Under the pieces are notes generated by a model. That model searched no databases. It saw nothing but the letters and a program-made list of their open reading frames with translations, and had not been told where the DNA came from. Below, piece after piece: positions 2,274 to 24,435 of a stretch of DNA of 64,000 bases. Positions within the stretch are counted from its first letter, which is position 1; each line of letters begins with the position of its first letter. Location of the stretch: contig JAJYXQ010000043.1 in NCBI GenBank assembly GCA_021796385.1, positions 2,202-66,201 on the forward strand, given 5' to 3'. The position numbers and the translations under genes are program-made. This DNA comes from Thermoplasmata archaeon. Lineage in GTDB: Archaea > Thermoplasmatota > Thermoplasmata > Lutacidiplasmatales > UBA184.

Positions 2274-3239
2274 TTACTTCTCTGTATTCGTCAGCTCTTT
2301 CCATTCTGACTTTTCTGGGCTGTCAGGAAGGGTCTCAAATCGTAGTCTGAATTCCTCCCACTTTTCCGGATATGCGTATTTTAACATCAGATAAATCGAC
2401 TTGCGGATTGTGCGTAGCGAAGCTTCCTTGGTTGTAGCCAGTTCCAAAATGAGCGGGTGCTGGGGGGGTAATGGAGGATGGGGTTTGTCGTCTAAATGCC
2501 AACTCTTGTCCCCCCTTTCCACTTCGATTCGGTCGACCAAGGACCTGACTGATTCGGCCGCTCCATAAGCATCTGACACGGCTTGTTGTAACTGGTCAGT
2601 CAGTGTGTACAGACGACCCGAGGCTCTCGCGGTGAGGTAAGCAAGATCCAGATAGAACACGTTAGACTCCTGACTAACAGCTTGTAGTCTCTGATAGATC
2701 GTAAGAATCTCGACGAAAAGGGCCCTTAACGTGGCAATGTCATCTACAGATTCAGGAGGGGGAGAGAGACGATTTTTCAGTTCTGTGAGATACCTCACTG
2801 CAGTAGGCGCAGCTGCGCTAAGATCTTCGCGCGCAAAGCGTTCATATTTCGCTACGTGCGGGTCCAACCCCTCCACTTTCACTCCCTTCTCAACAAAGAC
2901 GGTCATGGGCTTGTTCATCGAGTACGCAAGCGCTATCTCCTGTTCAACCCAAGTTGGGGGTCGCCATTCGGCTGAACCCTCAATCTTGTCTCTTCGAGTG
3001 AGGAGGGCAATGAATCCATCACTGTCGCGTATAAGTGACTTGACCGTCTCTGCAAGGGGCGATACCGATGGCTCCTCTCCGGTGATGACTTCCAGCTCGA
3101 CTGCCTCGGCGATCTTTCTGAACCACTCGAAAACTGTTTTGTCTTCTTGGGAGAAACTCCCGCTAAGGAAACACTTTGGGAATCGGGGATACGGCAAGCT
3201 TGTCACCTCCGTTACGCTGTAGTGCGGAATGCTTTCCAC
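2274..3239 (-). CDS. TIR-like domain protein (N-terminal TIR_2-like fold plus a C-terminal helical domain of unknown function)
   Basis: The N-terminus KCFLSGSFSQEDKTVFEWFRKIAEAVELEVITGEE...DGFIALLTRRDKIEGSAEWRPPTWVEQEIALA follows the prokaryotic TIR pattern (FiSYs.eD...f...L...g..v......S.W...E). The gene is ~50 % GC against ~65 % flanks. Confidence 0.45.
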   Translation of the reverse strand: MESIPHYSVTEVTSLPYPRFPKCFLSGSFSQEDKTVFEWFRKIAEAVELEVITGEEPSVSPLAETVKSLIRDSDGFIALLTRRDKIEGSAEWRPPTWVEQEIALAYSMNKPMTVFVEKGVKVEGLDPHVAKYERFAREDLSAAAPTAVRYLTELKNRLSPPPESVDDIATLRALFVEILTIYQRLQAVSQESNVFYLDLAYLTARASGRLYTLTDQLQQAVSDAYGAAESVRSLVDRIEVERGDKSWHLDDKPHPPLPPQHPLILELATTKEASLRTIRKSIYLMLKYAYPEKWEEFRLRFETLPDSPEKSEWKELTNTEK

Positions 3240-4331: not shown

Positions 4332-4931
4332 ATGGGGCCCTCCGGTTCCCGAGGGCCGAGCGAGGAGGGGGAGCCCCCCATCCCTTTCAGTTCTCTCAGG
4401 ATTGAACCATTCCGGCCAACGCGGGACGTGGAGTCCTTTGATTGCGACGACCGTGACCTGAACGAGTTCCTCACCAAAGACCAGGTTTCACGCTATGAGG
4501 CCGAGGGTCTGGGGTACACCTACCTTGTGTACCTCCAGAGTGAGGGTCGGCTCATCGCTTACTTCACCGTGTGCACTGACACACTCCGCGTCGAGTATCT
4601 CAGGACTGTCAAGACGTTCAAGCCGTTGTCGGGCATCCAGTTGGAGAGCATCCCTAGCGTCAAGATCGGACGCTTGGCCGTGGACAAGCGGTACTGGGGT
4701 CGGGACATAGGGACGCACCTACTCCACTACATTGCAGGGATGGTCATGGAGACCGGCATTGCTGCCCGCCTACTCACCCTCCAAGCCACTTCCCGTTCCG
4801 TGGGTTTCTATCAACGGATGGGGTTCGAACTTACAACAGAGACAAGGCGCGAGCGAAGGAGAGACAACCGAACCATGTTCTTCGATCTGTGGAGCCACCC
4901 TGAGCACGGGCACGCTCTCCCGCGGGAGTAA
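4332..4931 (+). CDS. GNAT-family acetyltransferase toxin of the AtaT/TacT type (aminoacyl-tRNA acetyltransferase)
   Basis: SFDCDDRDLNEFLTKDQVSRY...GYTYLV and IPSVKIGRLAVDKRYWGRDIGTHLLHYIAGM closely parallel the AtaT blocks RFDCGEEALNLFLTTHLVRQH and IPSVTLGRLAIDRSLQGQGWGATLVAHAM. The true start may lie ~15-20 codons downstream of 4332. Confidence 0.75.
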   Translation: MGPSGSRGPSEEGEPPIPFSSLRIEPFRPTRDVESFDCDDRDLNEFLTKDQVSRYEAEGLGYTYLVYLQSEGRLIAYFTVCTDTLRVEYLRTVKTFKPLSGIQLESIPSVKIGRLAVDKRYWGRDIGTHLLHYIAGMVMETGIAARLLTLQATSRSVGFYQRMGFELTTETRRERRRDNRTMFFDLWSHPEHGHALPRE

Positions 4932-5208: not shown

Positions 5209-8019
5209 GTGGCATCGAGCTTGACACCGGAAGAGGAAGCCCGCAAGCAGATCGACAAGATGCTTATCGGCTCCGGATGGAAGGTTCAGACCGTCTCAGA
5301 GACGAATCTTCATGCGGGACCGGGGGTGGCCATCCGGGAGTTCCCGTTGAAGTCCGGGCACGGCTTCGCCGATTACCTGCTCTACGTCGACGGCCGGGCG
5401 GTCGGGGTCATCGAGGCCAAGCCGGAAGGGAGCACCCTCACGGGGGTCGAGGTCCAGACCGGGAAGTACTCGACCGGTCTCCCAGACGAGGTCCCGGCGC
5501 CGGTGCGCCCGCTCCCGTTCCTCTACCAGAGCACCGGGGTGGAGACCCGTTTCACGAACCTCCTCGATCCGGAGGCGCGAAGCCGTCGGGTCTATTCCTT
5601 CCACCGCCCCGAGACGTTCCGGGAGTGGCTCACCGCGGGCCGTTTGCCCGGGTCGGACCGCCCTTCCGCGCTCCGGGGACGGGTCCGTCACATGCCCCCG
5701 CTCGTCACCACTGGATTGTGGCCGGCCCAGACCCGGGCGGTCGAGAACCTCGAAAAGTCGCTGGCTGAGGACCGCCCCCGATCCCTGATCCAGATGGCCA
5801 CTGGGAGCGGCAAGACCTTCACCGCCATTACGGCAGCCTACCGCCTCGTGAAGTTCGCGGACGCAAGGCGCGTCCTCTTCCTCGTGGACCGGGCCAACCT
5901 CGGTCGGCAGGCGCTGAAGGAGTTCCAGCAGTACGTCACCCCCGACGATGGCCGGAAGTTCACCGAGCTTTACAATGTGCAGCTCCTCACGTCCAACAAG
6001 ATCGACCCCGTCGCTCGGGTGGTCATCACCACGATCCAGCGGCTCTACTCCATTCTCCGGGGAGACCCGGAGCTCGACCCTGCCCTGGAGGAAGGCTCTC
6101 AGTTCAGCACGGGAGCGGGGCTCCTGAATGAGCCCGTGCCCATCCAGTACAACCCGAACGTCCCGCCCGAACTCTTCGATGTCGTCTTCATTGACGAGTG
6201 TCACCGATCCATCTACACGCTCTGGCGCCAGGTCCTCGAATATTACGATGCCTTCCTTATCGGGCTCACGGCGACTCCCGGCAAGCAGACCTTCGGGTTC
6301 TTCAACCAGAACCTCGTCATGGAATACAACCACGAGCAAGCGGTCGCTGACGGCGTGAACGTGGATTTTGACGTCTACCGCATCCTCACCGAGATCACCA
6401 AGAAGGGTAGCATCATCCAGGCGGGCTTGTGGGTCGACAAGCGCAACCGGGAGACCCGGGCGGTCACCCTCCAGCGTCTCGACGAACCCCTTACCTACGG
6501 TGCCGACAGCTTGGACCGGGATGTTGTCGCCAAGGACCAGATCCGTCGGGTGGTCCGCACATTCAAGGAGCGGCTCCCCACCGAGATATTCCCGGGGCGC
6601 GCCGAGGTCCCGAAGACCCTCATCTATGCCAAGGACGACTCCCACGCCGAGGACATCGTCGAGATCGTCCGGGAGGAGTTCGGCAAGGGAAACGAGTTCT
6701 GCCAGAAGATCACGTACAAGACCACGGGTGCCAAGCCCGAGGACCTCATCCAGGCCTTCCGGAACAGCTTCAATCCGCGTATCGCCGTGACCGTGGACAT
6801 GATCGCCACGGGGACGGACATCCGACCCCTTGAGATCGTGATGTTCCTGCGTGCGGTGAAATCCCGCACCTTCTTCGAGCAGATGAAGGGGCGCGGGGTC
6901 CGCGTCATCAGCCCCTCCGACCTCCGGGCGGTCTCCGGAGAAGATGCCACCGTGAAAGACCGCTTTGTCATCGTGGATTGTGTCGGGGCCTGCGAGAGCG
7001 AGCTCAGCGACACGTTCTCGCTGGACCGTGAGCCCACGGCAAGCCTTGAGAAGGTCCTCAAACAGGTCGGGTTCGGGGCGGCAGGGGAGACCCTTGCGGG
7101 TACCCTCGCAGGTAAGCTCTCCCGCCTCGACCGGAGGCTGTCGGAGGAGCAGAGGGGAGCTATCCGAGAGGCGAGCGGGGGTCCCAGCCTCAAGGAGATC
7201 ACGGGCGGCATCGTGAAGGCCCTGGACCCGGACTCCCACATTGAGGCGGCCCGGGCGAAGCTGAAGCTTCCCGCCGGGACCACGCCGCCGCCCGAGGCCG
7301 TGAAGGAAGCGAAGGAGGAGCTCTTACGGGTAGCGCTCACGCCACTGGCCGCGAACCCTGCCCTCCGGGAAAAGATACTTGAGGTCAAGAAGCGGGCCGA
7401 GCAGGTCATCGACAATGTGAGTCAGGACCATCTCATCGAGGCCGGCTTCTCGGCCGATGCGAAGGCACGCGCAAAGACCGTTGTCAAGGACTTCGAAGAG
7501 TTCATCCGGGAGCACAAGGACGAGATCACCGCCCTCCAGGTCCTCTACGCGAAGCCCCACGCGAAGCGCCTCACCTTCGAGGATGTGAAGGCCCTCGCCG
7601 ATGCGATCGGCGCACCGCCGCGGCAGTGGACGCCGGAGGTGCTCTGGCGGGCCTACGAAACGCTGGAGAGGGACAAGGTGAAAGGCGCAAGCCAGAGGCG
7701 GCTCCTGACGGACATCGTGAGCCTCGTGCGGTTCGCCCTGAAGCAGGAGGAAGTCCTGGAGCCGTTCCCGGAGCATGTCAAGGAACGGTTCGAGGACTGG
7801 ATCAGGGGGCAGGAGGGGGGGGGACGGAAGTTCACGCCGGAGCAACGGGAGTGGCTGGAGCTGATGCGGGACCACATAGCGGGTAGCCTCGCGATTGACG
7901 CCGAAGCGTTCGAGTACGCGCCCTTCAGTCAGAAGGGAGGGCTCGGGAGGGCGAGTGTGGTGTTCGGGAAGGACCTCACGAAGGTCATCACGGAACTGAA
8001 CGAGGTGCTGGCAGAGTGA
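5209..8019 (+). CDS. hsdR: type I restriction enzyme R subunit
   Basis: N-terminal PD-(D/E)xK nuclease (GFADYLLYVDGRAVGVIEAKPEG); helicase motif I MATGSGKTFTA; DEAD-box FIDECHRS; 936 aa. Confidence 0.9.
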   Translation: MASSLTPEEEARKQIDKMLIGSGWKVQTVSETNLHAGPGVAIREFPLKSGHGFADYLLYVDGRAVGVIEAKPEGSTLTGVEVQTGKYSTGLPDEVPAPVRPLPFLYQSTGVETRFTNLLDPEARSRRVYSFHRPETFREWLTAGRLPGSDRPSALRGRVRHMPPLVTTGLWPAQTRAVENLEKSLAEDRPRSLIQMATGSGKTFTAITAAYRLVKFADARRVLFLVDRANLGRQALKEFQQYVTPDDGRKFTELYNVQLLTSNKIDPVARVVITTIQRLYSILRGDPELDPALEEGSQFSTGAGLLNEPVPIQYNPNVPPELFDVVFIDECHRSIYTLWRQVLEYYDAFLIGLTATPGKQTFGFFNQNLVMEYNHEQAVADGVNVDFDVYRILTEITKKGSIIQAGLWVDKRNRETRAVTLQRLDEPLTYGADSLDRDVVAKDQIRRVVRTFKERLPTEIFPGRAEVPKTLIYAKDDSHAEDIVEIVREEFGKGNEFCQKITYKTTGAKPEDLIQAFRNSFNPRIAVTVDMIATGTDIRPLEIVMFLRAVKSRTFFEQMKGRGVRVISPSDLRAVSGEDATVKDRFVIVDCVGACESELSDTFSLDREPTASLEKVLKQVGFGAAGETLAGTLAGKLSRLDRRLSEEQRGAIREASGGPSLKEITGGIVKALDPDSHIEAARAKLKLPAGTTPPPEAVKEAKEELLRVALTPLAANPALREKILEVKKRAEQVIDNVSQDHLIEAGFSADAKARAKTVVKDFEEFIREHKDEITALQVLYAKPHAKRLTFEDVKALADAIGAPPRQWTPEVLWRAYETLERDKVKGASQRRLLTDIVSLVRFALKQEEVLEPFPEHVKERFEDWIRGQEGGGRKFTPEQREWLELMRDHIAGSLAIDAEAFEYAPFSQKGGLGRASVVFGKDLTKVITELNEVLAE

Positions 8020-9257
8020 TTACACTGTTGCCCCCGGGTTGGGTTTCAACTCCGCTAAGAGTCGTTCTCGAGTTCAAGTACGGTAAGAGTTTGCCCGAAC
8101 ACAGTCGCGAGGAGGGACCGATTCCCGTTTTCGGCTCGAGCGGTGTGGTGGGAACTCATACTGTGGCATGGACAAGCGGTCCGACTATTGTGGTAGGCCG
8201 GAAGGGCACGGTTGGTGCGACTCACTTTTCAGCCGGCCCATGTTGGCCCATTGACACCACGTACTATGTCGATGATTTCGGTCCACTCGATCCAAAATTC
8301 CTGACACACCAATTACGGTTCATGGCTCTAGGCCAACATAACACGTCAACAGCCATTCCGGGGTTGAATCGCGACATAGTCTACGACCAAGATGTGAGGA
8401 TAGCTCCCCTCCCCGAGCAGCACCGCATCGTGGAGGCCATCGAAGCCAACTTCGCCAGGCTGGATGAGGCGGTCGCGGGGTTGGAGCGGGCATGGGCGAA
8501 CCTTGCCCGGTACCGAGATAATGTGCTGAAAGAGGCTTGCGAAGGGCGTCTGATCTTTTCGCGGGCGAGCACCACAACTCTTGGAGAGATAGCGGAAATT
8601 CAGGGTGGCATTACTCTTGGGAAGAAGCGTGGTCAGGGAGAGCGAGTTCGACCCGTGCCATACCTCCGAGTTGCGAATGTTCAGCGCGGTCGTCTCGACC
8701 TCTCCGAGATGAAGTCCATTCCAGCGACGGAGGAGGAAATTGGTCGTCTTCGACTCGTCAGGGGCGACGTCTTATTCAATGAAGGAGGAGATCGCGACAA
8801 ACTCGGTCGTGGCTGGATCTGGGAAGACCAGTTACCGGAGTGCATCCATCAGAACCACGTGTTTCGAGCGAGAGTCAACTCTTGCATGGCCTTCTCGAAG
8901 TTCATTTCTTACTATGGCAACTCCGTGGCGCAGGGGTATTTTTGGGACGAGGGAAAGCATACGACCAACATGGCGTCCATCAACCGCACGTCTCTTGCCG
9001 CCTTGCCAATCCGCCTTCCCCCGCTCCAGACCCAACTTGATATCGTTACCGAGGTTGAGCGCATTCTGTCAATTTCCGACGAAGCCTCAGTCGAGGTTCG
9101 CAAGTCCCTCGACCGAGCAAACCATCTCCGCAAGTCGATCCTTGAAGCCGCTTACTCGGGCCACCTCGTGCGGCAGGAACCTAGTGACGAACCAGCGAGC
9201 GCGCTCCTCGAGCGCATCAAGGCCGAACGCTCCAGGTCTGCCCCTCGGAGGCGGTAG
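8016..9257 (+). CDS. hsdS: type I restriction-modification specificity subunit
   Basis: GTG start overlapping the hsdR stop (GTGA); two target-recognition-domain halves separated by conserved helical spacers; 413 aa. Confidence 0.85.
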   Translation: MITLLPPGWVSTPLRVVLEFKYGKSLPEHSREEGPIPVFGSSGVVGTHTVAWTSGPTIVVGRKGTVGATHFSAGPCWPIDTTYYVDDFGPLDPKFLTHQLRFMALGQHNTSTAIPGLNRDIVYDQDVRIAPLPEQHRIVEAIEANFARLDEAVAGLERAWANLARYRDNVLKEACEGRLIFSRASTTTLGEIAEIQGGITLGKKRGQGERVRPVPYLRVANVQRGRLDLSEMKSIPATEEEIGRLRLVRGDVLFNEGGDRDKLGRGWIWEDQLPECIHQNHVFRARVNSCMAFSKFISYYGNSVAQGYFWDEGKHTTNMASINRTSLAALPIRLPPLQTQLDIVTEVERILSISDEASVEVRKSLDRANHLRKSILEAAYSGHLVRQEPSDEPASALLERIKAERSRSAPRRR

Positions 9258-9259
9258 CT

Positions 9260-10777
9260 ATGCGGGTCCTGCTCGATACTAACATCCTAATCCATCGCGA
9301 GGCGGACCGGGTTGACCGAGAAGACATTGGAACCTTGTTCCGGGCTCTGGACTCCATCCATGCAGAGAAATGCGTCCACCCTGCCTCCATTGAGGAGATT
9401 GCACGACACGCGGTCCCCGGAGTGGTCCACGCTTTCAAGGTCAAGCTGGACAGCTACCATGTCCTGAAGACGCTCGCCCCTGTAACTTCTGAGACTGCGC
9501 CTCTCGGAGTCGGAGACCGTACCGATAATGACCGGATTGACACCGCACTACTGCGCGAGGTCGCGGCCGGCCGCGTTGACGCCCTCATCACTGAAGACCG
9601 GGGAATCCATGCGAAGGCACGGTCGGTCGGTCTCTCCGCGTCGGTATTCACAATCGATTCCTTCTTGGAGAAGGTCAATGCCGAGAACCCCCCGCTCGCG
9701 GACTATCGGGTCCTTTCCGTCAGGAAGACCCACTTTGGCGCGGTCAACCTCCGTGACAAGTTCTTCGACTCGTTCCGCAGTGAGTACAAGGACTTCGACA
9801 AGTGGTTCAACAGGAAAGCCGACGAGGTCGCCTATTGCTGTACCGACGTTGGAGGAGACATAGTCGCATTCCTCTTCGTCAAGCGCGAGGGTGTGGAAGA
9901 GAACTACTCGGACATCTCTCCTCCCTTCGGAAAGGCAAACCGTCTCAAGATTGGCACGTTCAAGGTCACAGCCAATGGCTACAAACTTGGCGAGCGTCTC
10001 CTCAAGATCGTATTCGATAACTCTCTCCTCTACGGTGTGGACGAAATCTACGTGACCGCGTTCGGCAAGTCCACGGAACAAGAGCGATTGCTCGGTCTCC
10101 TGGGGGAATGGGGGTTCATTTTGCACGGCACGAAGACCACACTCGACGGGGTGGAGCAAGTTTGGCTTCGTAACTTCCGCCCTGCCTTCGATGCGGCAAA
10201 CCCACGGAGGAGCTACCCTTACATCTCGACACAGACGAGACAATTCATCGTGCCGATCTACCCGGCTTATCATACCGAGCTCCTTCCCGACTCCATCCTG
10301 GACACCGAGTCGCCGGCGGATTTCGTCGAGAGCAAGCCCAACCGTAACGCGATCAGTAAAGTCTACGTCTCGCGTTCCATTGAGCGGGGACTGCGACCCG
10401 GGGACATCATCGTATTCTACCGCACAAGATCAGGCAATGGTCCTGCCCACTACACTTCGGTGGCGACTACTCTCGGAATCGTCCAAGAGGTAGTCGAAGG
10501 CTTCCATACCAAGGACGAGTTCATCAAAGTCTGTCGGAAACGTAGCGTATTCACAGACGCGGAACTTACGGCCCAGTGGGATCACAATCCAAGTTCTCGT
10601 CCATTCATCGTCAACTTTCTCTACGCCTATTCACTTCCTACTCGGCCAAACCTCGTGAAGTTGAAGGAGGCGGGCATCATCACCGATGCCCCACGAGGCA
10701 TCGAATTCATGTCGATTGAATCGTTTAGAAAGTTGCTAGAGGTGTCTAATGCCAACAAGCGCGTTGTTATCGATTAG
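9260..10777 (+). CDS. multidomain protein: N-terminal PIN nuclease domain, central GNAT-like acetyltransferase fold, C-terminal ASCH (PUA-like) domain
   Basis: PIN: MRVLLDTNILIHREAD...ALITEDRG. GNAT-like: RLKIGTFKVTANGYKLGERLLKIVFDN...IYVTAFG. ASCH-like: AISKVYVSRS...GDIIVFYRT (a K-x4-R variant of GxKxxExR). Starts 3 nt after the hsdS stop and lies inside the R-M operon. Confidence 0.6.
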   Translation: MRVLLDTNILIHREADRVDREDIGTLFRALDSIHAEKCVHPASIEEIARHAVPGVVHAFKVKLDSYHVLKTLAPVTSETAPLGVGDRTDNDRIDTALLREVAAGRVDALITEDRGIHAKARSVGLSASVFTIDSFLEKVNAENPPLADYRVLSVRKTHFGAVNLRDKFFDSFRSEYKDFDKWFNRKADEVAYCCTDVGGDIVAFLFVKREGVEENYSDISPPFGKANRLKIGTFKVTANGYKLGERLLKIVFDNSLLYGVDEIYVTAFGKSTEQERLLGLLGEWGFILHGTKTTLDGVEQVWLRNFRPAFDAANPRRSYPYISTQTRQFIVPIYPAYHTELLPDSILDTESPADFVESKPNRNAISKVYVSRSIERGLRPGDIIVFYRTRSGNGPAHYTSVATTLGIVQEVVEGFHTKDEFIKVCRKRSVFTDAELTAQWDHNPSSRPFIVNFLYAYSLPTRPNLVKLKEAGIITDAPRGIEFMSIESFRKLLEVSNANKRVVID

Positions 10778-11141
10778 GCCCGAGTTCGCGGAGGCCATTC
10801 TAGAAGGGAGGAAGACCTATGAGCTTCGGCGCCGCTTATTTGCTCGCGATGACGTCACCCGAATCTTGGTCTATGCCTCCAGTCCTGTGCAGCGCGTGGT
10901 CGGCGAGTTCTCCGTGGAGAAGATCCTAGCGATGGAGCCGCGCAAGCTCTGGGCTGTAACTTCAAGTGGAGCTGCCGTGCAGCGGAGACTCTTCGACTCG
11001 TACTTCGAAGACCGGCAAGTAGGATATGCCATCAAGGTGGGAAAGGTGCGGCGCTATGGACATCCAATGACCCTGAAGGAAAGCTGCGGCTTGGAGCGCC
11101 CACCGCAGTCGTTTTGCTATCTTCGCCCAAAGGGTGACTGA
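10749..11141 (+). CDS. ASCH domain protein
   Basis: SIRPEFAEAILEGRKTYELRRR carries a perfect ASCH GxKxxExR signature; 130 aa; overlaps the upstream gene by 29 nt; its stop overlaps the hsdM start (ATGA). Confidence 0.7.
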   Translation: MPTSALLSIRPEFAEAILEGRKTYELRRRLFARDDVTRILVYASSPVQRVVGEFSVEKILAMEPRKLWAVTSSGAAVQRRLFDSYFEDRQVGYAIKVGKVRRYGHPMTLKESCGLERPPQSFCYLRPKGD

Positions 11142-12700
11142 TGGCAACCAACCACTCCCAACAGATCATCCAGAAGTTGTGGAACTACTGCAACGTCCTG
11201 CGTGACGACGGCCTATCCTACGGGGACTACCTCGAACAACTGACCTACCTCCTCTTCCTCAAGATGGCTCACGAACAGACGCAACCGCCGTGGAGCCGTG
11301 CTTCCCCCATCCCGGAACAGTTCGCCTGGCCGAGCCTCCTCAAGCGCTCCGGCGACGACCTTGAGACCCACTACCGGCACATCCTGGAGTCCCTCGGGAA
11401 GGAGAAGGGGATGCTGGGAATCATCTTCCGCAAGGCCCAGAACAAGGTCCAGGATCCCGCCAAGCTCGAACGCCTCATCAAGGACCTCATCGACCGCGAA
11501 CAGTGGATGTCCCTTGACGCCGACGTCAAGGGAGATGCCTACGAGGGACTCCTCCAGAAGAACGCCGAGGATGTGAAGGGAGGGGCCGGCCAGTACTTCA
11601 CCCCACGGCCCCTCATCCGAGCCATCGTGGATGTCATGCGGCCGGCGCCGGGAGAGACCGCCTGCGACCCTGCGTGCGGGACGGGCGGCTTCCTCCTCGC
11701 CGCCCACGACTACATCGTCCGCACGAACCCGAACCTCGACAAGACGCAGAAGAAGCACCTGAAGCTCCAGGCCCTTCATGGTGTCGAGATCGTGGACGCC
11801 GTGACGCGCCTCTGCGCGATGAACCTCCTCTTACATGGTATCGGACCTCAGGACGACGAGTCCGTCCCACCCGTGAAGACCGACGACAGCTTACGCGCCG
11901 ACCCCGGGGACCGCTTCGACATGGTCCTCACGAACCCCCCCTTCGGTCGGAAGTCCTCGGTCATGATCGTCAACCAGGAAGGGGAAGAAGAGAAGCAGTC
12001 GCTCACAGTCGTCCGCGATGACTTCTGGGCGGAGACGAGCAACAAGCAGTTGAACTTCGTCCAGCACGTCAAGACCCTCCTCAAGGTCAACGGAAGGGCG
12101 GCCGTCGTGGTTCCCGACAATGTCCTCTTCGAGGGAGGGGCGGGGGAGACCATCCGCAGGAAGCTCCTCGAGACGTGCGAGGTCCACACCCTCCTGCGTC
12201 TCCCCACGGGCATCTTCTACGCCCAGGGTGTGAAGGCCAACGTCCTCTTCTTCGACAAGAAGCCCGGGAGCGCAAAGCCCTGGACCCAGAAGTTGTGGGT
12301 CTACGATTTGCGAACGAACCAGCACTTCACTCTCCGCACGAATCCCCTGAAGCGGGAGGACCTGGACGAGTTCGTAGCCTGCTACAACCCGAAGAACCGG
12401 CACGAGCGGAAGTCCACCTACGACCCGAAGGCAAACCCACAGGGGAGGTGGCGTGCCTACGACTATGAGGAGCTCCTACAGCGGGACAAGGTGAGTCTCG
12501 ACCTGCTGTGGCTCAAGGACGATAGTCTGGAGGATTCGGCCAACCTCCCCGAGCCCCATGTCATTGCCGCCGAGATCGCCGAGGATCTGCAGGCGGCCGC
12601 TGAGCAGTTTGCGCTCATTGCCAATGACCTTCAGAGCCGCATGAAGAAGCCGGCGTCGGGGGATGACGGAAAGAAAAAATCCCTCCAGAGCAAGGGATAG
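11141..12700 (+). CDS. hsdM: type I restriction-modification N6-adenine DNA methyltransferase subunit
   Basis: Classic HsdM N-terminus (QKLWNYCNVLRDDG...YLEQLTYLLFLK); AdoMet motif DPACGTGGFL; catalytic NPPFG. Confidence 0.92.
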   Translation: MATNHSQQIIQKLWNYCNVLRDDGLSYGDYLEQLTYLLFLKMAHEQTQPPWSRASPIPEQFAWPSLLKRSGDDLETHYRHILESLGKEKGMLGIIFRKAQNKVQDPAKLERLIKDLIDREQWMSLDADVKGDAYEGLLQKNAEDVKGGAGQYFTPRPLIRAIVDVMRPAPGETACDPACGTGGFLLAAHDYIVRTNPNLDKTQKKHLKLQALHGVEIVDAVTRLCAMNLLLHGIGPQDDESVPPVKTDDSLRADPGDRFDMVLTNPPFGRKSSVMIVNQEGEEEKQSLTVVRDDFWAETSNKQLNFVQHVKTLLKVNGRAAVVVPDNVLFEGGAGETIRRKLLETCEVHTLLRLPTGIFYAQGVKANVLFFDKKPGSAKPWTQKLWVYDLRTNQHFTLRTNPLKREDLDEFVACYNPKNRHERKSTYDPKANPQGRWRAYDYEELLQRDKVSLDLLWLKDDSLEDSANLPEPHVIAAEIAEDLQAAAEQFALIANDLQSRMKKPASGDDGKKKSLQSKG

Positions 12701-12703
12701 CCG

Positions 12704-13150
12704 ATGAGCCCATTGGCGTGGTTCCCCCGCGGCCGCTGGCCCTCCCCGTGCGCCGGGTGCGGGAAGAAGATCCCCTCCTCCTCCCGCCGGACCCACGACC
12801 CGGCCACGAACAAGTTCTACCACCCCGCGTGCGCACCTGAGCCCGACCCCGACAACGGCGCAGCCGGCCAGTCGGGACCAGGGAAGAGTTCACTCGAAGC
12901 GCAAAGCAAGGCGGGGAACCTCCCCGGCTTCGTGAGCGGCGACAAGCTGAAGCCGGGCCCGCCCCGCGTGGCAATCTACGCGCGGGTCTCCACCAAGAAG
13001 CAGGAGACGGAGAACCAGGTGGTCTGGCTGCGCGACTACACCGCCCAGATGGGTCGGGCCGTGGCGGAGGTCCTGAGGGAGCTGGGGCTCCCGAAGACGG
13101 CGCTGTCGGCGGTGCAGAGAGCCGTTACGACGAGGCAGGAATTGAGGTGA
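12704..13150 (+). CDS. zinc-ribbon protein carrying a serine-recombinase N-terminal catalytic motif; likely recombinase remnant or fusion
   Basis: N-terminal CAGCGKK...HPAC; then RVAIYARVSTKKQETENQVVWLRDYTAQMGRAVAEV matches the resolvase motif aiYaRVSt..Q....Q...l..ya...g..v..v and then diverges; there is no resolvase core or HTH. GC falls from ~65 % to ~45 % at ~13150-13160. Confidence 0.45.
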   Translation: MSPLAWFPRGRWPSPCAGCGKKIPSSSRRTHDPATNKFYHPACAPEPDPDNGAAGQSGPGKSSLEAQSKAGNLPGFVSGDKLKPGPPRVAIYARVSTKKQETENQVVWLRDYTAQMGRAVAEVLRELGLPKTALSAVQRAVTTRQELR

Positions 13151-13767
13151 TGCGGGTGATGGAGGAACTCAACAACATTCAGTTTCCGAGAATTGATGAC
13201 TACTTCTACCCTAGCGGAAGTTTGGCGGAGGGTTGGAAGTTCAAATCGCAGAAAGCGAGAGCAGCCTGGATTCTCTTCAGGCTCTATTTGAACGGCACCA
13301 TTACTCAATGGAATCGCATGGCCGAGAATGCGGACTCTTCCCGTAAGGATATGGGAAACCTACAGGTGTGGTGCAGAAACCAGATTGACTTGCATTTCTA
13401 TCTTATCTGCTGGGACAAGATGCATAAGTATCTCAAAGTCTTTGTTAACGAACAGGATGACAGCGAGATTCTCAGGATATATTCTCGAATTAAGCGCCTG
13501 CTCGAAATGGGAAAACTAGCTCGAGACCATCTTGAGCACCTGGACAAACGAATCGATAGACCCACTACGGGATTCCATTATCTCGGTATTGGATCGGATG
13601 GGATGCTCACGCTGGCGTACAGAGATGTACCCAACAAGGGCGGAATAATCGAGAGGGATGTTGCGTTAGGCAAGGATGAAGTGGAGCAAGTGATGGCAAC
13701 GTTCAAAAATATCATGGATGTCTTGGAGGGTTCGACTCGAAGTAATCCGCGCCAAAACGATTTGTAG
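13147..13767 (+). CDS. hypothetical protein (low-GC insert); possible HEPN-like motif
   Basis: 206-aa ORF with protein-like composition and a downstream T5 tract; contains LARDHLEHLDKR (an Rx4H-like motif); no confident family. Confidence 0.5.
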   Translation: MMRVMEELNNIQFPRIDDYFYPSGSLAEGWKFKSQKARAAWILFRLYLNGTITQWNRMAENADSSRKDMGNLQVWCRNQIDLHFYLICWDKMHKYLKVFVNEQDDSEILRIYSRIKRLLEMGKLARDHLEHLDKRIDRPTTGFHYLGIGSDGMLTLAYRDVPNKGGIIERDVALGKDEVEQVMATFKNIMDVLEGSTRSNPRQNDL

Positions 13768-13790: not shown

Positions 13791-13845
13791 TTTTTAGCCC
13801 TACCTAAAGGGGACATTTAGGGATAGGGGAGTCTTCTAAAGACTC
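13791..13845. terminator. T5 tract plus a 7-bp hairpin (GAGTCTT-cta-AAGACTC) between convergent genes
   Basis: TTTTT at 13791-13795; a perfect inverted repeat at 13829-13845; lies between the stop of 13147..13767 and the 3' end of the HEPN gene. Confidence 0.25.
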
Positions 13846-14315
13846 TATGCGCAAAGCGACTGAATCTTGTCAATGAGTTCAAGGGCGCCGTTGTAGTAAT
13901 CTTTGAGACGACCATAGGAGATGCCTACATCGGAACCGTGCGATATGCTGTTCCGATTATTGACAATGCTGTTGACAGCCTCCTTCACGCGGTCATCCAA
14001 GCAATTCAGTTCTGCCTGCCATTTTGGGCTAAATGCTCCCGCAAGTTCAAGTATCTTCTGCATGTTTGGATTTTGAAAGTACTCCAGTTGGCTGCCAACG
14101 TAATTCGATACCGTGGGGGCGGCCTTGTTGGAGGCGTAGCCAGCGTAGATCGTGCGTAATGAGGTTTCGAGAAAACCAGAAATCAGGATGCAAAGGTAAC
14201 GTGTCCAATGGGACTGCATCTCAGGGTCGTCGGTGATCCGTATCTTCTCGAATAGGCGATCGATTCGCTGTTGTCGCCGCTTAATCTCGAAGTCATAGTA
14301 TCCCAGATTGGTCAT
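13845..14315 (-). CDS. HEPN-domain protein (Rx4HG motif), partner of the DUF262 protein
   Basis: A C-terminal NNRNSISHG gives the R-x4-H-G HEPN catalytic signature; alpha-helical; 156 aa; overlaps the upstream DUF262 gene by 4 nt. Confidence 0.6.
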   Translation of the reverse strand: MTNLGYYDFEIKRRQQRIDRLFEKIRITDDPEMQSHWTRYLCILISGFLETSLRTIYAGYASNKAAPTVSNYVGSQLEYFQNPNMQKILELAGAFSPKWQAELNCLDDRVKEAVNSIVNNRNSISHGSDVGISYGRLKDYYNGALELIDKIQSLCA

Positions 14316-15385
14316 GGTACATTCATGAAAGCATCGACTGCGAGCTTCATGCGCGCAGCGAGCTGAGCCTCTCTTGCCGTTGCCTTTCCAGATGCTTGGA
14401 TAAAGTCCGGATTCAAGAGAAGACTGTCATATGCCTGTGAGAGGGAGGTAGGGTTAGAGAGGGGGCCCCTCTTGAGCCTCTCAGCTACCCCCACCATGAC
14501 CGAATCAAAGACAGCCGCGTTCAACACCCCTTGCGGACGGAAGGCCCTCACTCCAATCGTGTCGTGAATGGTATGGATGGTCTTCGAAAACGTCGAGGTG
14601 AGTTCGTCCGCAGATTGCAGCACAAGACGCCGGTTTTTGGACATGTACCGGTTAAGGAACTTCTTCATGGGGCTTTCGTATTTCGTGCGATAATAGAACA
14701 TGGACAGGAACCGGAGAAGGAGTTCTTGGTCTCGCATTCTAGAACTCGTGTCACCGTATATCGCGCGCCAATCTTTGTTCCGATTCAGTTCCTTTAACAA
14801 TTCCTTGAATTCTCCATGGTAAATGGCGCTTCGAATCTCTTGGGATTGGAGATCGGTTCCGCCGGTGTTAAGTCGCTCGAAAATGAGGAAGGTACTGCTG
14901 TTCTCGTCTTCGGGCTCGTCCTGCCTAACGATTGTCGCATGGAGGATTGAATCGTCTAGCCTCCTTCGAGCTTCATCGGGGAGGGTTTTGTACGTCATGT
15001 CCTTGAATCGGCTTACGACCCCTCTTAGCTCAAACGCCTTCTTAGAAGGTTCAAAGACTCCATCGAAGAAGAACTGAAGAGTGCGCAATCGTTGGTTTCC
15101 GTCAATTACTAGGAGTTTCTGGGTCGATTCTTCCTTTGAAAGGAAGATGCCGGGGACCGGCAATCCCAAGAGGAGAGATTCGATGAACCTGCATGCTTGG
15201 CTGTAGGTCCAGACGTACCCTCTTTGGAAATCTGGCAGGGAGATGTCTCCGGCTTTGAGACGCTTGACAAGGCTGTCGACGGTGTAGTCGGCACCATAAG
15301 CCGTTATCGAGTAGTCGAACAGTATTTCTTCCTCGAACTCATCGCCTAAGCTGTCAACGATTTCGGTGTCGACCATCAAACCCAC
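14312..15385 (-). CDS. DUF262 (ParB/Srx-like, DGQQR motif) domain protein
   Basis: PDFQRGYVWT...ESLLLGLPVPGIFL...LLVIDGNQRLRTL (a DGQQR variant) and FERLNTGGTDLQSQEIRSAIY; 357 aa with a C-terminal helical region; ~47 % GC. Confidence 0.75.
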   Translation of the reverse strand: MGLMVDTEIVDSLGDEFEEEILFDYSITAYGADYTVDSLVKRLKAGDISLPDFQRGYVWTYSQACRFIESLLLGLPVPGIFLSKEESTQKLLVIDGNQRLRTLQFFFDGVFEPSKKAFELRGVVSRFKDMTYKTLPDEARRRLDDSILHATIVRQDEPEDENSSTFLIFERLNTGGTDLQSQEIRSAIYHGEFKELLKELNRNKDWRAIYGDTSSRMRDQELLLRFLSMFYYRTKYESPMKKFLNRYMSKNRRLVLQSADELTSTFSKTIHTIHDTIGVRAFRPQGVLNAAVFDSVMVGVAERLKRGPLSNPTSLSQAYDSLLLNPDFIQASGKATAREAQLAARMKLAVDAFMNVP

Positions 15386-20789: not shown

Positions 20790-21568
20790 CGGAGAAGTCT
20801 TCCAAGGAGGCGATCTTCGGAATCCCGGAGGTCGACGATGAGCTTGGTGGTGTCCTACCGAAAGGTTGGGCAGGTATCGTGACCGGGGCGCCAGGGAGCG
20901 GGATCGAGCTCTTGGCCAAACAGTTTGCCAGCTTCGCTCCGGAACGGATGCCGGTCTATTACTACACCACAATGGAGCGGACCGAGGACATCCTCAGCGC
21001 ACTCCGCAATTTTGGGTGGAGGGAGAATCTGAACCTGGTCAACATCCTCGAAGAGTACTACGACCAAGTCCTTTCCCGGAACCTCGAGGTGAGCCGGTTT
21101 CGAGAAATGGGGATTTCCCCGGAGGACATCTCCCAGTTCACGATGAAGGGGATACAGGGTAAGCGCGTCAATTTCGTCACCCGGATGATCAACGATCTCG
21201 CCACCCTCGACAAGCCGTTCCGGCTCGTGGTGGATTCGTTGGACTTCTTCCTTGAGCAGGCCGAGACCAGCGATGTCATATCGATGGTTCGCCAGATCCG
21301 ATACCGCGCACAGCGGGTCGGAGGTCGTGCACTGATGACGTTGACCCCTGACATCCACGACCATCGCATTACTGGTACGCTCGGAACCATCGCCGATGTC
21401 CTCCTGAACCTTGAGGTAGAAGAGCGTGCGACCAAGTTTCAGTACGCCATCGCCATCGAAAAAGTCCGGAACCATCCCGAGTCGACCGGGCTCATCCGGG
21501 TCAATGTCGGAGACCAAGGCATTGCGAGTGCCGGATCCGAAGACAAGAGCCGTTTCTCGGCCGCCTAA
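20786..21568 (+). CDS. KaiC-like domain protein with a degenerate Walker A (GAPGSGIE, no Lys)
   Basis: IFGIPEVDDELGGVLPKGWAGIVTGAPGSGIELL...FRLVVDSLDF; ATGA overlap with the upstream gene; 260 aa. Confidence 0.65.
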   Translation: MTEKSSKEAIFGIPEVDDELGGVLPKGWAGIVTGAPGSGIELLAKQFASFAPERMPVYYYTTMERTEDILSALRNFGWRENLNLVNILEEYYDQVLSRNLEVSRFREMGISPEDISQFTMKGIQGKRVNFVTRMINDLATLDKPFRLVVDSLDFFLEQAETSDVISMVRQIRYRAQRVGGRALMTLTPDIHDHRITGTLGTIADVLLNLEVEERATKFQYAIAIEKVRNHPESTGLIRVNVGDQGIASAGSEDKSRFSAA

Positions 21569-24435
21569 CCAGTATCGTCTTTTTTCGGCGGAGGGTTCTC
21601 GCTCGCCCGGTCCTTCTTCGGGCGTTCCGGCACCTGGGTCATGACTTTGATGAACATCCGGTGGATGTCCTCGGGTCTCGGACCGGTTTGAGGGGTCCGG
21701 GAAGTCCCGGCAGACAGCCGCGTAGGACCCGAGCGAATGTCGTTGACAAACGTATCGAACTCGGCAAGGGTCTCATTCACGGTAGAGGCGTCGTACCCTT
21801 GGCTGGGAAGGCTACGGAGCGAATTGCGCACGAGTTGGGCATACGTGGCGAGCTCATCTCCGGGCTCCTCGGATCCATCCCGGGACTTTCCTCCCTCAGC
21901 AAGGGCGGCGGTGGATTCTACGTCATGGATGACCGACTCCATGCCCGTCTTGCCGAGATAGCCTTCGAGGAACCCTTTGAAAAGCGTGAGGGCCCACTGG
22001 AGACCGGCCGTCCCGCGTCGCGGGGAAGAGTCGACGGCTGTCCGGTCAAGTGCCTCCAGGACCCCCCTCACTCGAACCGCGTAATCGATTAGGGGTTCTC
22101 CGGGATTCCATGGTACGTTCACATCCTGCGACCACTTCCGGCTCGTTTCCTCCAAGGTCTTAGAGAGAGCGGACATTTCCCGCTCGCTCAGCCCGCGATG
22201 TGCCTCCATGAGGCTCGCCGAGACGGCTTTGGCCATCTGAAGGGAAACAGGAGGTGAGGAGGCGCCGGAAGGATGTTCCAATTGGGCCCTTTGGATGTAT
22301 TCCTTCGCGGGCTCATTCTGTTGGCGGATCACCCCCGTTGCATAGGCCGCCCGAAAGGCCGATGCTTCCCAGTCCACCTGGCTCATCGCAGGTTTTGTCG
22401 AGGGTGCCGTGGAGGGAGACGCCGCCCTCGGAGCCCCGTCGGAACTCGTAGGGGAAGGAGCGCTGGCTCCGGGCACGGACGGAGGGGTCTGCACCGGTTC
22501 CTGGGGCTCGGGAACCTCCCTTCGTGGTAATGGACGGGTCGTGGCTCGGCCGATAACTGCTTCGAAGATCTGGTTGACCCTCGCCACGCTCTCCTTGGGT
22601 GGAATGGCTGCCGGGATAGAACTTCCGGAGCTCGCATCATCCGACCCCTTCAGGTCTGTGACCAAGGCGTCAAACTCCCGAAGGATACGTCCCAATTCTT
22701 CCGGAGGGATCGTGCCCGGGCTGAGGGCACTCAGAGCATTCCTCACGAGACGTGCGTACGTTGCCATCTCGTCGCCTGCGTCCTCGGTCGTACTCCGGAA
22801 GACACTTCCGGAGGCGGCCTCTTCGGCAAGGGAGTCCACCAATTGGGCGGTCCGTTGCGGGCCGATTGAACTTTCGAGAAAACCTCGGAACAGGGCGAGC
22901 GCCCACTGGAATCCGGCCATCGTGTTCTTTTGGTCCGGCGCCGCTACGGCGGTACGTTCGAGGGTCGAATAGACACCATTCACTCGGGCAAGGTACTCGT
23001 CCAAAGGTTCCCCCGCATTTCGGGGAACTTTGAGCCGCTCATCGAGTCGTTTGCATTCGGATTCAAGAGAACGAAGGAACTCAGGGAACTTTTTCTCACC
23101 AATCTGGAGACGGGACTGCTCGAGCGTCCGCCGGAGGGCTACGACCAAGATCGCGGGATCAGGGGTTTTCCCTGCAAGTCGAGCCGATTCCAGCGCACCC
23201 CGGAGGGCGTAATCCCGACCCGATTCTCCTTCGTTCCGTAGTGCACCTGTGCTCATCGCAGTGCGGAACGCGGTCGACTCCCAGGGCCCAATCCCATCTT
23301 TGGGGGAGAGGAACTGCATCCCATAGGACGCTCCAATGGTTTGTGCTGCCCGTCGGTCCATCGGGTTTGGTGCGTTCGTCAATAGCGATGGGTCGGGCGA
23401 GGGACTGGAGGCTTGGGGGGTCGCTAGCGGTCGGGTTCCCGGTGATATCGAGGAACGGTCTACCGGTTTCTCAGAAAGCGGGACACCCCCCATCTCCGCA
23501 GCGGATTTTCCATCGACCTGCCGCGCCAACGCCAGTCGAAGGGCTTCGAGCTTGGCACCGGTGAGATCGGTGTAGTCCGCAATGTCTTTGAGACTGGGTT
23601 CCCGTCCCCGAATCTCGGCTTCAGGTCTGAGGGTCGCCTTGACAAGATCGGCGGAGGGTATCCTCGCAACCAGAGCCTTCATGTTCCGAAGTTGGGTTTG
23701 GGTTGCCACCCACTTCTCACGCTCTAGCACTACGTAATCTGGGGTGCTTTCGGGGATCCCATCTTCCTCACCTTCCGGAACAAGGGCCGCCAATGTTCCC
23801 CCTACTGTCGCAATTCCCCCCACAAGCAGGAACACAACCCACAAGGGGTAGTATCGGTCTCCGATGCGGTCGTAGCTGCCCCAGAAAAGTATCGAGATAA
23901 CGATGGCAGCGACCCCGAAGAAGAGAAGGGGGGCACTCGATTCAAACCCTTCCAGAAGTTCCTGGGTCCGGCTGGGGATGGAACGAGACTTAGTAGGGTT
24001 ATCCAAGCGCGGCTCCTGTTCCCGAACAACCTGACGGTCCTTGGCTGCGACAGAATTGCCTCCAAGCACAAACCGTATGAGCGGAAGGAACCAGAGCAGA
24101 ACTCCAATCACAAGGAACGTTCCTATGGGTAGAAGCAGTGCCCCTTCGACCGCCGTAGGGTCCAAAATGAGAACAGACAGTCCCAAGATGGTCAGGATCG
24201 TGGCTGCAGAAAGGAGTAAAAGGAAGGCCAGTCGAGGGCGGTAGATGTCGGTACGGGTCATGCTGCGTCTCCGTGCCCGCCGAATGCGTTTTGACAAGGT
24301 CTTGCGAGAGAACTCGGGAACAGTGGATTTTGGACGGATCTTAGCGGACCGTGAAGGGGCACGCCATTCCCGGATAGGCGGTTGTTTCTTCGCTCGAGAC
24401 GCTTGGGGAAGGGTCGCCATCCAGGTGTACAGCAC
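21565..24435 (-). CDS. hypothetical polytopic membrane protein (basic N-terminus, 4 TM, large soluble region with internal duplication)
   Basis: 956 aa; TM helices LAFLLLLSAATILTILGLSVLIL, ALLLPIGTFLVIGVLLWFLPLI, LLFFGVAAIVISILFW and LWVVFLLVGGIATVGG; its 3' end overlaps the third KaiC-like gene by 4 nt, convergently. Confidence 0.6.
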   Translation of the reverse strand: MLYTWMATLPQASRAKKQPPIREWRAPSRSAKIRPKSTVPEFSRKTLSKRIRRARRRSMTRTDIYRPRLAFLLLLSAATILTILGLSVLILDPTAVEGALLLPIGTFLVIGVLLWFLPLIRFVLGGNSVAAKDRQVVREQEPRLDNPTKSRSIPSRTQELLEGFESSAPLLFFGVAAIVISILFWGSYDRIGDRYYPLWVVFLLVGGIATVGGTLAALVPEGEEDGIPESTPDYVVLEREKWVATQTQLRNMKALVARIPSADLVKATLRPEAEIRGREPSLKDIADYTDLTGAKLEALRLALARQVDGKSAAEMGGVPLSEKPVDRSSISPGTRPLATPQASSPSPDPSLLTNAPNPMDRRAAQTIGASYGMQFLSPKDGIGPWESTAFRTAMSTGALRNEGESGRDYALRGALESARLAGKTPDPAILVVALRRTLEQSRLQIGEKKFPEFLRSLESECKRLDERLKVPRNAGEPLDEYLARVNGVYSTLERTAVAAPDQKNTMAGFQWALALFRGFLESSIGPQRTAQLVDSLAEEAASGSVFRSTTEDAGDEMATYARLVRNALSALSPGTIPPEELGRILREFDALVTDLKGSDDASSGSSIPAAIPPKESVARVNQIFEAVIGRATTRPLPRREVPEPQEPVQTPPSVPGASAPSPTSSDGAPRAASPSTAPSTKPAMSQVDWEASAFRAAYATGVIRQQNEPAKEYIQRAQLEHPSGASSPPVSLQMAKAVSASLMEAHRGLSEREMSALSKTLEETSRKWSQDVNVPWNPGEPLIDYAVRVRGVLEALDRTAVDSSPRRGTAGLQWALTLFKGFLEGYLGKTGMESVIHDVESTAALAEGGKSRDGSEEPGDELATYAQLVRNSLRSLPSQGYDASTVNETLAEFDTFVNDIRSGPTRLSAGTSRTPQTGPRPEDIHRMFIKVMTQVPERPKKDRASENPPPKKDDTG
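21727..22371 (-). repeat. second copy (about aa 689-903) of an intragenic ~215-aa tandem domain duplication
   Basis: WEASAFRAAYATGVIRQQNE...PWNPGEPLIDYAVRVRGVLEALDRTAV...GLQWALTLFKGFLEG...GDELATYAQLVRNSLRSL...LAEFDTFVNDIRSG parallels aa 385-600. Confidence 0.55.
22636..23283 (-). repeat. first copy (about aa 385-600) of the intragenic tandem domain duplication
   Basis: WESTAFRTAMSTGALRNEGE...PRNAGEPLDEYLARVNGVYSTLERTAV...GFQWALALFRGFLES...GDEMATYARLVRNALSAL...LREFDALVTDLKGS. Confidence 0.55.

Follow-up and report, generated by a model that had tools for sequence, protein, structure and literature searches.

The stretch of DNA analysed here, 64,000 nucleotides (nt) of contig JAJYXQ010000043.1 from a Thermoplasmata archaeon (called the window below), carries a type I restriction-modification (R-M) operon with two additional genes, X and Y, lodged between hsdS and hsdM. 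All five open reading frames (ORFs) lie on the + strand: hsdR (5209..8019), encoding a 936-amino-acid (aa) type I restriction subunit of the EcoEI/EcoAI-like family; hsdS (8016..9257), encoding the 413-aa specificity subunit; X (9260..10777), encoding a 505-aa PIN-GNAT-PUA(EVE/ASCH-like) fusion protein; Y (10749..11141), encoding a stand-alone ASCH protein of 130 aa; and hsdM (11141..12700), encoding a 519-aa N6-adenine methyltransferase. The order and the tight, operon-like packing are those of a preliminary description of this DNA, as are the 4-nt overlap of hsdR and hsdS (GTGA) and the 29-nt overlap of X and Y (10749..10777, +), while the gap between hsdS and X is 2 nt rather than 3 and the overlap between Y and hsdM is 1 nt (TGATG) rather than 4. 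The same 29-nt overlap is called in relatives of 63–100% identity and probably reflects translational coupling, and X-Y is probably transcribed together with the R-M operon. A scan of the operon for sigma-70 promoters and intrinsic terminators gave counts no higher than those in shuffled sequences; because the host is an archaeon, to which the sigma-70 consensus is not applicable, the promoter scan is uninformative.

The three hsd genes are all present, apparently intact, and bona fide by Pfam and by strong PADLOC type I models. HsdR matches Pfam ResIII (E = 5e-35) and EcoEI_R_C (E = 2e-40) and PADLOC REase_I (E = 6e-43), HsdS matches Pfam Methylase_S in two stretches and PADLOC Specificity_I (E = 7.5e-77), and HsdM matches Pfam N6_Mtase (E = 1e-67) together with HsdM_N, and PADLOC MTase_I (E = 1.3e-198). 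NCBIfam type I endonuclease models also match the hsdR product, but under their cut-offs.

The two genes between hsdS and hsdM form a catalogued pair. X matches the PADLOC model PDLC04422 (PDC-M11A) with E = 6.4e-197, residues 1–504 aligning to profile positions 1–500 of 501, and Y matches PDLC04425 (PDC-M11B) with E = 6.5e-45; since these are full-length family profiles matched at E-values of 6e-197 and 6.5e-45, the domain matches of X and Y are not due to chance. In Payne et al. (2024), PDC-M11 is listed as cassette CAS_00069; it belongs to a set of 145 candidates, all untested, that were obtained by looking for genes lodged within BREX, DISARM, or type I R-M systems. Where the preliminary description saw in the pair a possible defence or abortive-infection effector nested in an R-M operon, it drew the same inference as Payne et al. 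did through “guilt-by-embedding”. The architecture itself, first taken to be undescribed, is in the literature as well: Bell et al. (2020; PMC7641849; BMC Biol 18:159), crediting Iyer et al. (2013), reported “(PIN)-GNAT-EVE” proteins whose operons almost always contain an ASCH gene and often an AAA_17 ATPase gene, described as non-essential, with a frequent type I R-M association in bacteria and archaea, and Matelska et al. (2017; PMC5499597) classed the same architecture as PIN_15/PIN_17. The X-Y architecture and its occurrence with R-M have both been published and catalogued before, and the window supplies one more clean archaeal example.

X is built of a PIN nuclease domain with an intact-looking acidic site (residues 1–142; 9260..9685, +), a GNAT-like fold (residues ~153–320; 9716..10219, +), and a PUA-like (ASCH/EVE) β-barrel (residues ~325–505; 10232..10774, +), so that the initial call of PIN, GNAT-like, and ASCH/PUA-like domains is correct at the level of the fold. 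Conservation was assessed in 47 X homologs from bacteria and archaea. The acidic residues D6, E46, D94, and D113 of the PIN domain are invariant in 47/47, as are E100, E112, and D133; mapped by position, the first four would correspond to the canonical D-E-D-D metal-site quartet, and because the acidic residues are invariant in the 47 homologs, the nuclease site of X looks intact. The most conserved stretch of the protein is found beyond the GNAT-like domain, at Y337-HTELLPDSIL-x-TE350 (window positions 10268–10309), again invariant in the 47 homologs. It falls in and beside a loop that the structure model leaves unplaced (predicted local distance difference test, pLDDT, < 50; X residues 343–361), and it may serve as an interface or as a catalytic lid. 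The C-terminal barrel of X has no significant sequence homology to Y; a sequence-detectable relationship between the two was considered and dropped, the barrels being linked by fold only.

The GNAT-like domain of X is likewise recognisable by fold only. None of the 47 family members matches any of the Pfam Acetyltransf_* models at E ≤ 0.05, the X-family profile found no GNAT in the PDB, and an hhalign comparison of the domain with a bona fide GNAT encoded upstream in the window (4332–4931) is not significant, so that tying the domain to GNATs by sequence failed by all three routes. The same hhalign comparison pairs the β4-α3 loop of X with the coenzyme A (CoA)-binding, or CoA-pyrophosphate, loop of that GNAT. 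In X this loop reads N239-G-Y-K-L-G244-E-R246, which fails the motif A pattern Q/R-x-x-G-x-G/A, the last glycine alone fitting. The loop (as N239-G-x-K-x-G-E-R246) and a motif-B-like W284-G-F286 are both invariant in the 47 homologs, which speaks at the least for conservation of a ligand site in the domain. Matelska et al. (2017; PMC5499597) described the domain as lacking motif A, degenerate, and probably inactive.

Y is an ASCH protein carrying the GxKxxExR signature, just as it had been described: it scores 24.4 bits against Pfam ASCH, above the gathering score of 21.2 bits, and its motif is G20-x-K22-x-x-E25-x-R27, in which K22, E25, and R27 are invariant in 52 Y homologs and G20 is at least 90% conserved. 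The family profile made from these 52 homologs matches the ASCH protein of Zymomonas mobilis (ZmASCH; PDB 5GUQ/5GUS) over its full length with E = 1.2e-20; among the PDB matches of the profile at E ≤ 1 are ZmASCH and two hypothetical proteins only, and YqfB is not one of them. YqfB is an ASCH protein that hydrolyses N4-acetylcytidine; we take its structure to be present in the PDB, and it presumably has Thr where the GxKxxExR motif of Y has the canonical Glu. Judged by sequence, Y belongs with ZmASCH, a single-stranded RNA (ssRNA)-binding ribonuclease (RNase), and not with YqfB. ZmASCH binds single-stranded DNA (ssDNA) and ssRNA, cleaves ssRNA with Mg2+ in vitro, depends functionally on Tyr47, Lys53, and Ser128, and has been proposed to act in the control of cellular RNA levels (Kim et al., 2017; PMC5615036). 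Y keeps the equivalents of Tyr47 (Y42) and Ser128 (S121), while the Lys53 position is occupied by Gln48, a Gln also in the family consensus. ZmASCH is a solo gene in Zymomonas; we had considered it as the ASCH partner of a GNAT-EVE operon and rejected this, its upstream neighbour of 375 aa being unrelated to X and giving no PADLOC hit. Separately, Y matches the C-terminal “unknown domain” (positions 192–311) of NCBIfam PRK12279, the “ribosomal protein L22/unknown domain fusion protein”, with E = 4e-12; by this match, the domain joined to the ribosomal protein there is an ASCH barrel like that of Y.

The domain anatomy of the two proteins bears directly on the idea of a nucleic-acid acetylation system, in which the GNAT domain would acetylate a DNA or RNA base (e.g., N4 of cytosine), the EVE-like barrel would target it, Y would read or remove the mark, and the PIN domain would take RNA as substrate or guide. 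The invariant N-G-x-K-x-G-E-R loop and W-G-F, the placement of that loop opposite the CoA-pyrophosphate loop of a true GNAT, and the N4-acetylcytidine hydrolysis by an ASCH protein such as YqfB are consistent with this, yet YqfB is the relative that the Y profile does not find at E ≤ 1, where it finds ZmASCH at E = 1e-20, and the canonical Glu of Y stands in place of the presumed Thr of YqfB. Acetylation of DNA bases was, according to the credit given by Bell et al. (2020; PMC7641849), proposed by Iyer et al. (2013), whose idea Matelska et al. (2017) summarise as well, and Bell et al. also state that PUA-like domains read modified bases. Set against the missing matches to Pfam acetyltransferase models in every member, the non-significant profile comparison, and a non-canonical motif A in a domain held to be degenerate and probably inactive (Matelska et al., 2017; PMC5499597), however, this makes a GNAT acetyl-writer beside an ASCH eraser, as the pair had first been pictured, very unlikely.

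Outside the window, X belongs to a large family, which at 90% identity comprises over 4,130 clusters, nearly all of ~505 aa; an exhaustive search of 1.84 billion representatives gave 1,761 hits at E ≤ 1e-3, of which 368, counted as clusters at 50% identity, reach E ≤ 1e-30. Three size variants are found: full PIN-GNAT-PUA proteins of ~500 aa, proteins of ~350 aa without the PIN domain, and proteins of ~615–635 aa with an extra N-terminal extension. Among the longer homologs (P0150, P0152, P0153, P0155, and others; ~580–635 aa), the extension ahead of the PIN domain measures ~85–125 aa. Pattern searches of 185,579 species genomes returned 335 stretches encoding X relatives, spread over many bacterial phyla and over Bathyarchaeia and Nano-, Micr-, and Woesearchaeota at 51–62% identity, and the distribution of X-Y is patchy and driven by horizontal transfer. 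All locus counts below refer to the best 80 loci, taken at species level, out of the 335 stretches in species-representative genomes.

Y lies directly downstream of X in 74/80 loci. The other recurrent companion is a gene for a P-loop kinase-like protein of ~180 aa, which adjoins X-Y in 31/80 loci (28 upstream, 3 downstream of Y), falls into Pfam AAA_17/AAA_18, is adenylate/UMP-CMP-kinase-like by profile, and has the Walker A sequence GGIHGVGKTT. The loci with this gene include L005, L008, L011, L012, L015, L018, L021, L058, L075, and L093. A proposal that the usual upstream neighbour of X is HsdS or a half-HsdS was rejected, the recurrent ~180-aa gene being AAA_17/18 kinase-like, and a six-frame profile search of the 64-kb window found no homolog of it, which rules out a copy hidden elsewhere in the window. 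In four loci from Hymenobacter and Chitinophaga (L013, L014, L023, L059), ~960 nt separate X and Y and contain an extra, non-kinase gene. Across the loci, neighbouring genes include HNH, TIR, nSTAND, and AIPR genes. Three settings are seen among the relatives at 63–69% identity: a prophage-like region, a run of metabolic genes in which X-Y follows a kinase-like gene (Longimicrobium terrae), and X-Y by itself.

Mobile replicons carry the pair as well. It occurs on 33 plasmids, including rhizobial megaplasmids and haloarchaeal plasmids, and homologs without the PIN domain are present in annotated phage records of lambdoid coliphages, Salmonella SopEPhi, and Lactobacillus and Enterococcus phages. 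The PIN-less pair of Escherichia phage PhiR47_2 directly follows cI, at the rexAB position of lambda, and in GenBank record PV340567.1 the phage pair was labelled “GevT toxin” and “GevA antitoxin” by the depositor; residues 153–504 of X share 36% identity with GevT, and Y shares 43% with GevA. A full-length X homolog with 29% identity over residues 1–435 is found in Methanothermobacter phage psiM100 (AF301375.1/NC_002628.3, 8233–9534), within the annotated “inserted fragment IFa” (ORFD).

R-M genes were sought within ≤10 kb around X-Y in the 80 loci with iterated profiles for hsdM, hsdR, and hsdS. All three were found in 8/80 loci, and one further locus has R and S only (~11%); truly R-M-embedded X-Y pairs number 4/80, with 2 more directly adjacent to R-M. 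Embedding or adjacency is thereby roughly ten-fold above a chance level that we infer, as a rough estimate, to be ~1%, and is far from obligatory. The position within R-M operons also varies, being M-S-X-Y-R, M-X-Y-S-R, or M-S-kinase-X-Y-R elsewhere and S-X-Y-M in the window. Relatives at 80–100% identity keep the order hsdR-hsdS-X-Y-hsdM with an HsdS length of 311–466 aa, and the flanks of these close relatives contain DUF932, ParA, resolvase, Tn3, and IS21 genes. In the P0004 lineage (L085–L087), with an X that is 86% identical, hsdM is reduced to a 92-aa HsdM_N fragment and X-Y is intact; the fragment is followed by an unrelated gene of 571 aa without a Pfam hit, which was examined and rejected as a divergent HsdM. 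X-Y is an autonomous mobile cassette for which R-M embedding is facultative. Within one strain cluster whose X proteins are 100% identical, the specificity region is variable: comparing L081 with L082–L084, hsdS is called as 311 or 413 aa and hsdR as 932 or 936 aa, with hsdR split in one sample.

These observations bear on the comparison with PrrC and RloC that the preliminary description had drawn, and on a coupling in that sense, in which X-Y would be physically or functionally wired to HsdRMS, held latent by it or reading the modification state through the EVE/ASCH barrels, with the PIN RNase firing when a virus disables or evades restriction. The overlapping or near-abutting junctions inside the operon fit this, as does the retention of S-X-Y-M in relatives at 80–100% identity despite the variation of hsdS, and the embedding recurs in unrelated taxa (4 embedded and 2 adjacent among the 80 loci, the ten-fold excess given above over a rough ~1%); Bell et al. 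(2020; PMC7641849) moreover report an ASCH domain fused to HsdS in Methanohalophilus. A latent toxin of the PrrC type should, however, be lethal or decay once its R-M partner is lost, and the 86%-identical lineage keeps X-Y intact beside a destroyed hsdM. Some 89% of the loci have no hsd genes within ≤10 kb, relatives sit in prophage-like or metabolic contexts, the position of X-Y within R-M operons is not fixed, phage and plasmid copies exist without R-M, and X has neither the ABC ATPase nor the anticodon-nuclease modules of PrrC/RloC. A coupling of this type is, we believe, distinctly unlikely. A slim chance remains for a more elaborate arrangement confined to the R-M-embedded copies, in which both PUA-like barrels, that at the C-terminus of X and that of Y, would sense how nucleic acids are modified, either in connection with the type I system of the host or in hypermodified genomes of viruses that evade that system, and would gate a dual PIN-RNase and GNAT-acyltransferase effector; if true, abortive infection would here be integrated with R-M and rely on the sensing of modification, and a true acylation of nucleic acids might be one of its steps.

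The same distribution invites a reading without any antiviral role, namely that X-Y is a selfish addiction module, or a cellular RNA-metabolism pair, that stabilises its island or R-M operon or carries out a housekeeping RNA transaction, the R-M location being a by-product of insertion. From one domain of life to another, X hardly changes in length and is very highly conserved in sequence, which sets it apart from immune sensors with their fast evolution; metabolic genes surround many of the loci, mobile-element genes are frequent in the flanks, and ZmASCH, a solo chromosomal gene, has the proposed role in cellular RNA levels (PMC5615036). This reading sits poorly, however, with a patchy, horizontally driven distribution (335 pattern hits in 185,579 species genomes), with the recurrent R-M embedding, the HNH, TIR, nSTAND, and AIPR neighbours, the phage copies in the rexAB slot, and the selection of the cassette as a defence candidate by its embedding. 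We regard this reading as unlikely.

On balance, we favour, with a probability of roughly 0.6, that the X-Y pair between hsdS and hsdM is a copy of a widespread mobile “(PIN)-GNAT-EVE + ASCH” cassette (PDC-M11) and constitutes a self-contained, toxin–antitoxin (TA)-like conflict or defence module. What the cassette is, how it is organised in domains, and that it is independent of R-M are direct observations; the mechanism that we propose is put together from them and from the relatives. X-Y would work as a unit of its own, separate from the subunits of the R-M enzyme. X would be the effector, with its GNAT-like domain and PUA-like barrel selecting an RNA, most plausibly tRNA or another conserved single-stranded RNA, which the PIN domain would cleave, and the GNAT-like domain might acylate the substrate or act as a ligand/CoA sensor. 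Y, whose translation would be coupled to that of X, would be an ASCH protein that binds single-stranded nucleic acids and restrains or regulates X until infection or stress. Through its place in an R-M operon, the cassette could then be expressed and transferred together with DNA restriction, behind which it would form a second line of defence, directed at RNA.

Several lines of evidence point this way. X appears competent as an effector because the PIN acidic, GNAT-loop, motif-B-like, and PUA residues are invariant in the 47 homologs. RNA is the suggested target because ZmASCH, the closest characterised homolog of Y, binds single strands of either nucleic acid and is an RNase on ssRNA in vitro, and because Y keeps two of its three functional residues (as Y42 and S121). 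A TA-like logic is suggested because the phage homologs hold the rexAB slot and carry the depositor's toxin and antitoxin labels, and because the 29-nt overlap is conserved. The setting is one of conflict and mobility because of the mobile-gene flanks in relatives, the resolvase remnant and HEPN/GmrSD_N gene pair in the window (described below), and the plasmid and phage copies. Toxicity of X and its neutralisation by Y would follow by analogy from the depositor's annotation of the PIN-less phage homologs, the sole support for this step.

Other points weigh against this proposal. For the GevT/GevA labels no paper was found in the literature searched, nor were experiments on PDC-M11 or on any PIN-containing member, and according to Bell et al. 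(2020; PMC7641849) experimental characterisation was lacking for all of the modules. Matelska et al. (2017; PMC5499597) argue against acetyl-CoA binding by the GNAT-like domain. Y is encoded downstream of X, unlike most antitoxins, and the solo occurrence of ZmASCH in Zymomonas, beside an unrelated gene, means that proteins of the Y type have a role in their own right. The conservation of X, at 51–62% identity between archaea and many bacterial phyla, is unusually high for a defence gene, and many X-Y loci lie among ordinary metabolic genes.

The question of what these proteins do has already been posed in the literature, and it concerns a cassette class that is abundant, strikingly conserved between archaea and bacteria, and found in prophages, plasmids, and R-M operons. 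Settling the joint role of the PIN domain, the GNAT-like domain, and the two PUA-like readers would decide whether the cassette represents a new RNA-targeting immunity, a TA module, or a nucleic-acid acylation system.

Around the operon, the window shows further signs of a defence island. Directly after hsdM, the ORF at 12704–13150 (+) has kept just part of the N-terminal domain of a resolvase (aa 89–126). Close relatives encode an intact 283-aa resolvase here, so the island seems to have been remodelled at its right edge. Further on, a HEPN_RiboL-PSP gene (13845–14315, −) overlaps a GmrSD_N/DUF262 gene (14312–15385, −), the product of which matches PADLOC NsnA (E = 4e-69) and PD-T4-2_A (E = 3e-57); the HEPN and GmrSD_N pair is a second defence system beside the R-M operon, and the GC content there drops to ~0.50. 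On the other side, just upstream of hsdR, the segment 4161–5202 (+) contains the canonical GNAT gene mentioned above (4332–4931; Acetyltransf_1/_10), preceded by a gene of 52 aa that is called in relatives and followed by an ORF of 88 aa, and is possibly a GNAT-toxin TA module. For the ORFs at 2274–3239 (−, 321 aa), 13147–13767 (+, 206 aa), and 21565–24435 (−, 956 aa), neither Pfam nor NCBIfam gave a hit at the thresholds applied; for the first two, which flank the defence island, PADLOC gave none either. The remaining window is chromosomal, with genes for an H+-PPase, UvrB, a GvpD/KaiC-like ATPase, and an aldehyde dehydrogenase, and with an alanyl-tRNA synthetase that passes the archaeal equivalog model TIGR03683 at 907 bits against a cutoff of 745.

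Among known systems, the (PIN)-GNAT-EVE + ASCH operons of Iyer et al. (2013) and Bell et al. (2020), or PIN_15/PIN_17, come closest to X-Y, sharing the three-domain fusion, the adjacent ASCH gene, and the type I R-M association; their ASCH pairing and optional AAA_17 gene are reproduced in our loci (74/80 and 31/80), and the AAA_17 gene does not occur in the window. As PDC-M11 of PADLOC, the pair corresponds over the full length of both proteins and in their adjacency (X to PDC-M11A, Y to PDC-M11B), and the candidate was defined from genes embedded in R-M, BREX, and DISARM systems, as in the window; because PDC-M11 is an untested candidate, membership in it is silent on mechanism. GevT/GevA of lambdoid coliphages have the same gene order and overlapping junction, but the phage proteins do not have the PIN domain and occupy the rexAB slot of a prophage, whereas X-Y resides in an R-M operon. 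ZmASCH (PDB 5GUQ) is of the same family as Y and itself matches PDC-M11B (E = 3e-29); Y keeps its GxKxxExR motif and the equivalents of Tyr47 and Ser128, with Lys53 exchanged for Gln, and the solo ZmASCH has no X-like neighbour.

With PrrC and RloC, X-Y shares the nesting of an RNA-directed effector gene among hsd genes as a second line of defence. The proteins are unrelated, X and Y having neither an ABC ATPase nor an anticodon-nuclease domain by Pfam, NCBIfam, PADLOC, or fold, and PrrC is almost exclusively R-M-embedded (Payne et al., 2024), in contrast to X-Y, for which embedded or adjacent cases make up only ~10% of the 80 loci and stand-alone, prophage, and plasmid copies exist. A last likeness is to the TA systems built on the same toxin folds. 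The GNAT-toxin systems (TacAT, AtaRT, ItaRT, KacAT) and the PIN-based VapBC systems are translation-directed, and X-Y has in common with them the GNAT and PIN folds and the two-gene module with a small partner. It differs from them in the partner, which is a downstream ASCH barrel in place of a ribbon-helix-helix or helix-turn-helix antitoxin, in a GNAT-like domain without the canonical motif A, and in the fusion of PIN, GNAT, and a PUA-like reader within the 505 aa of X.

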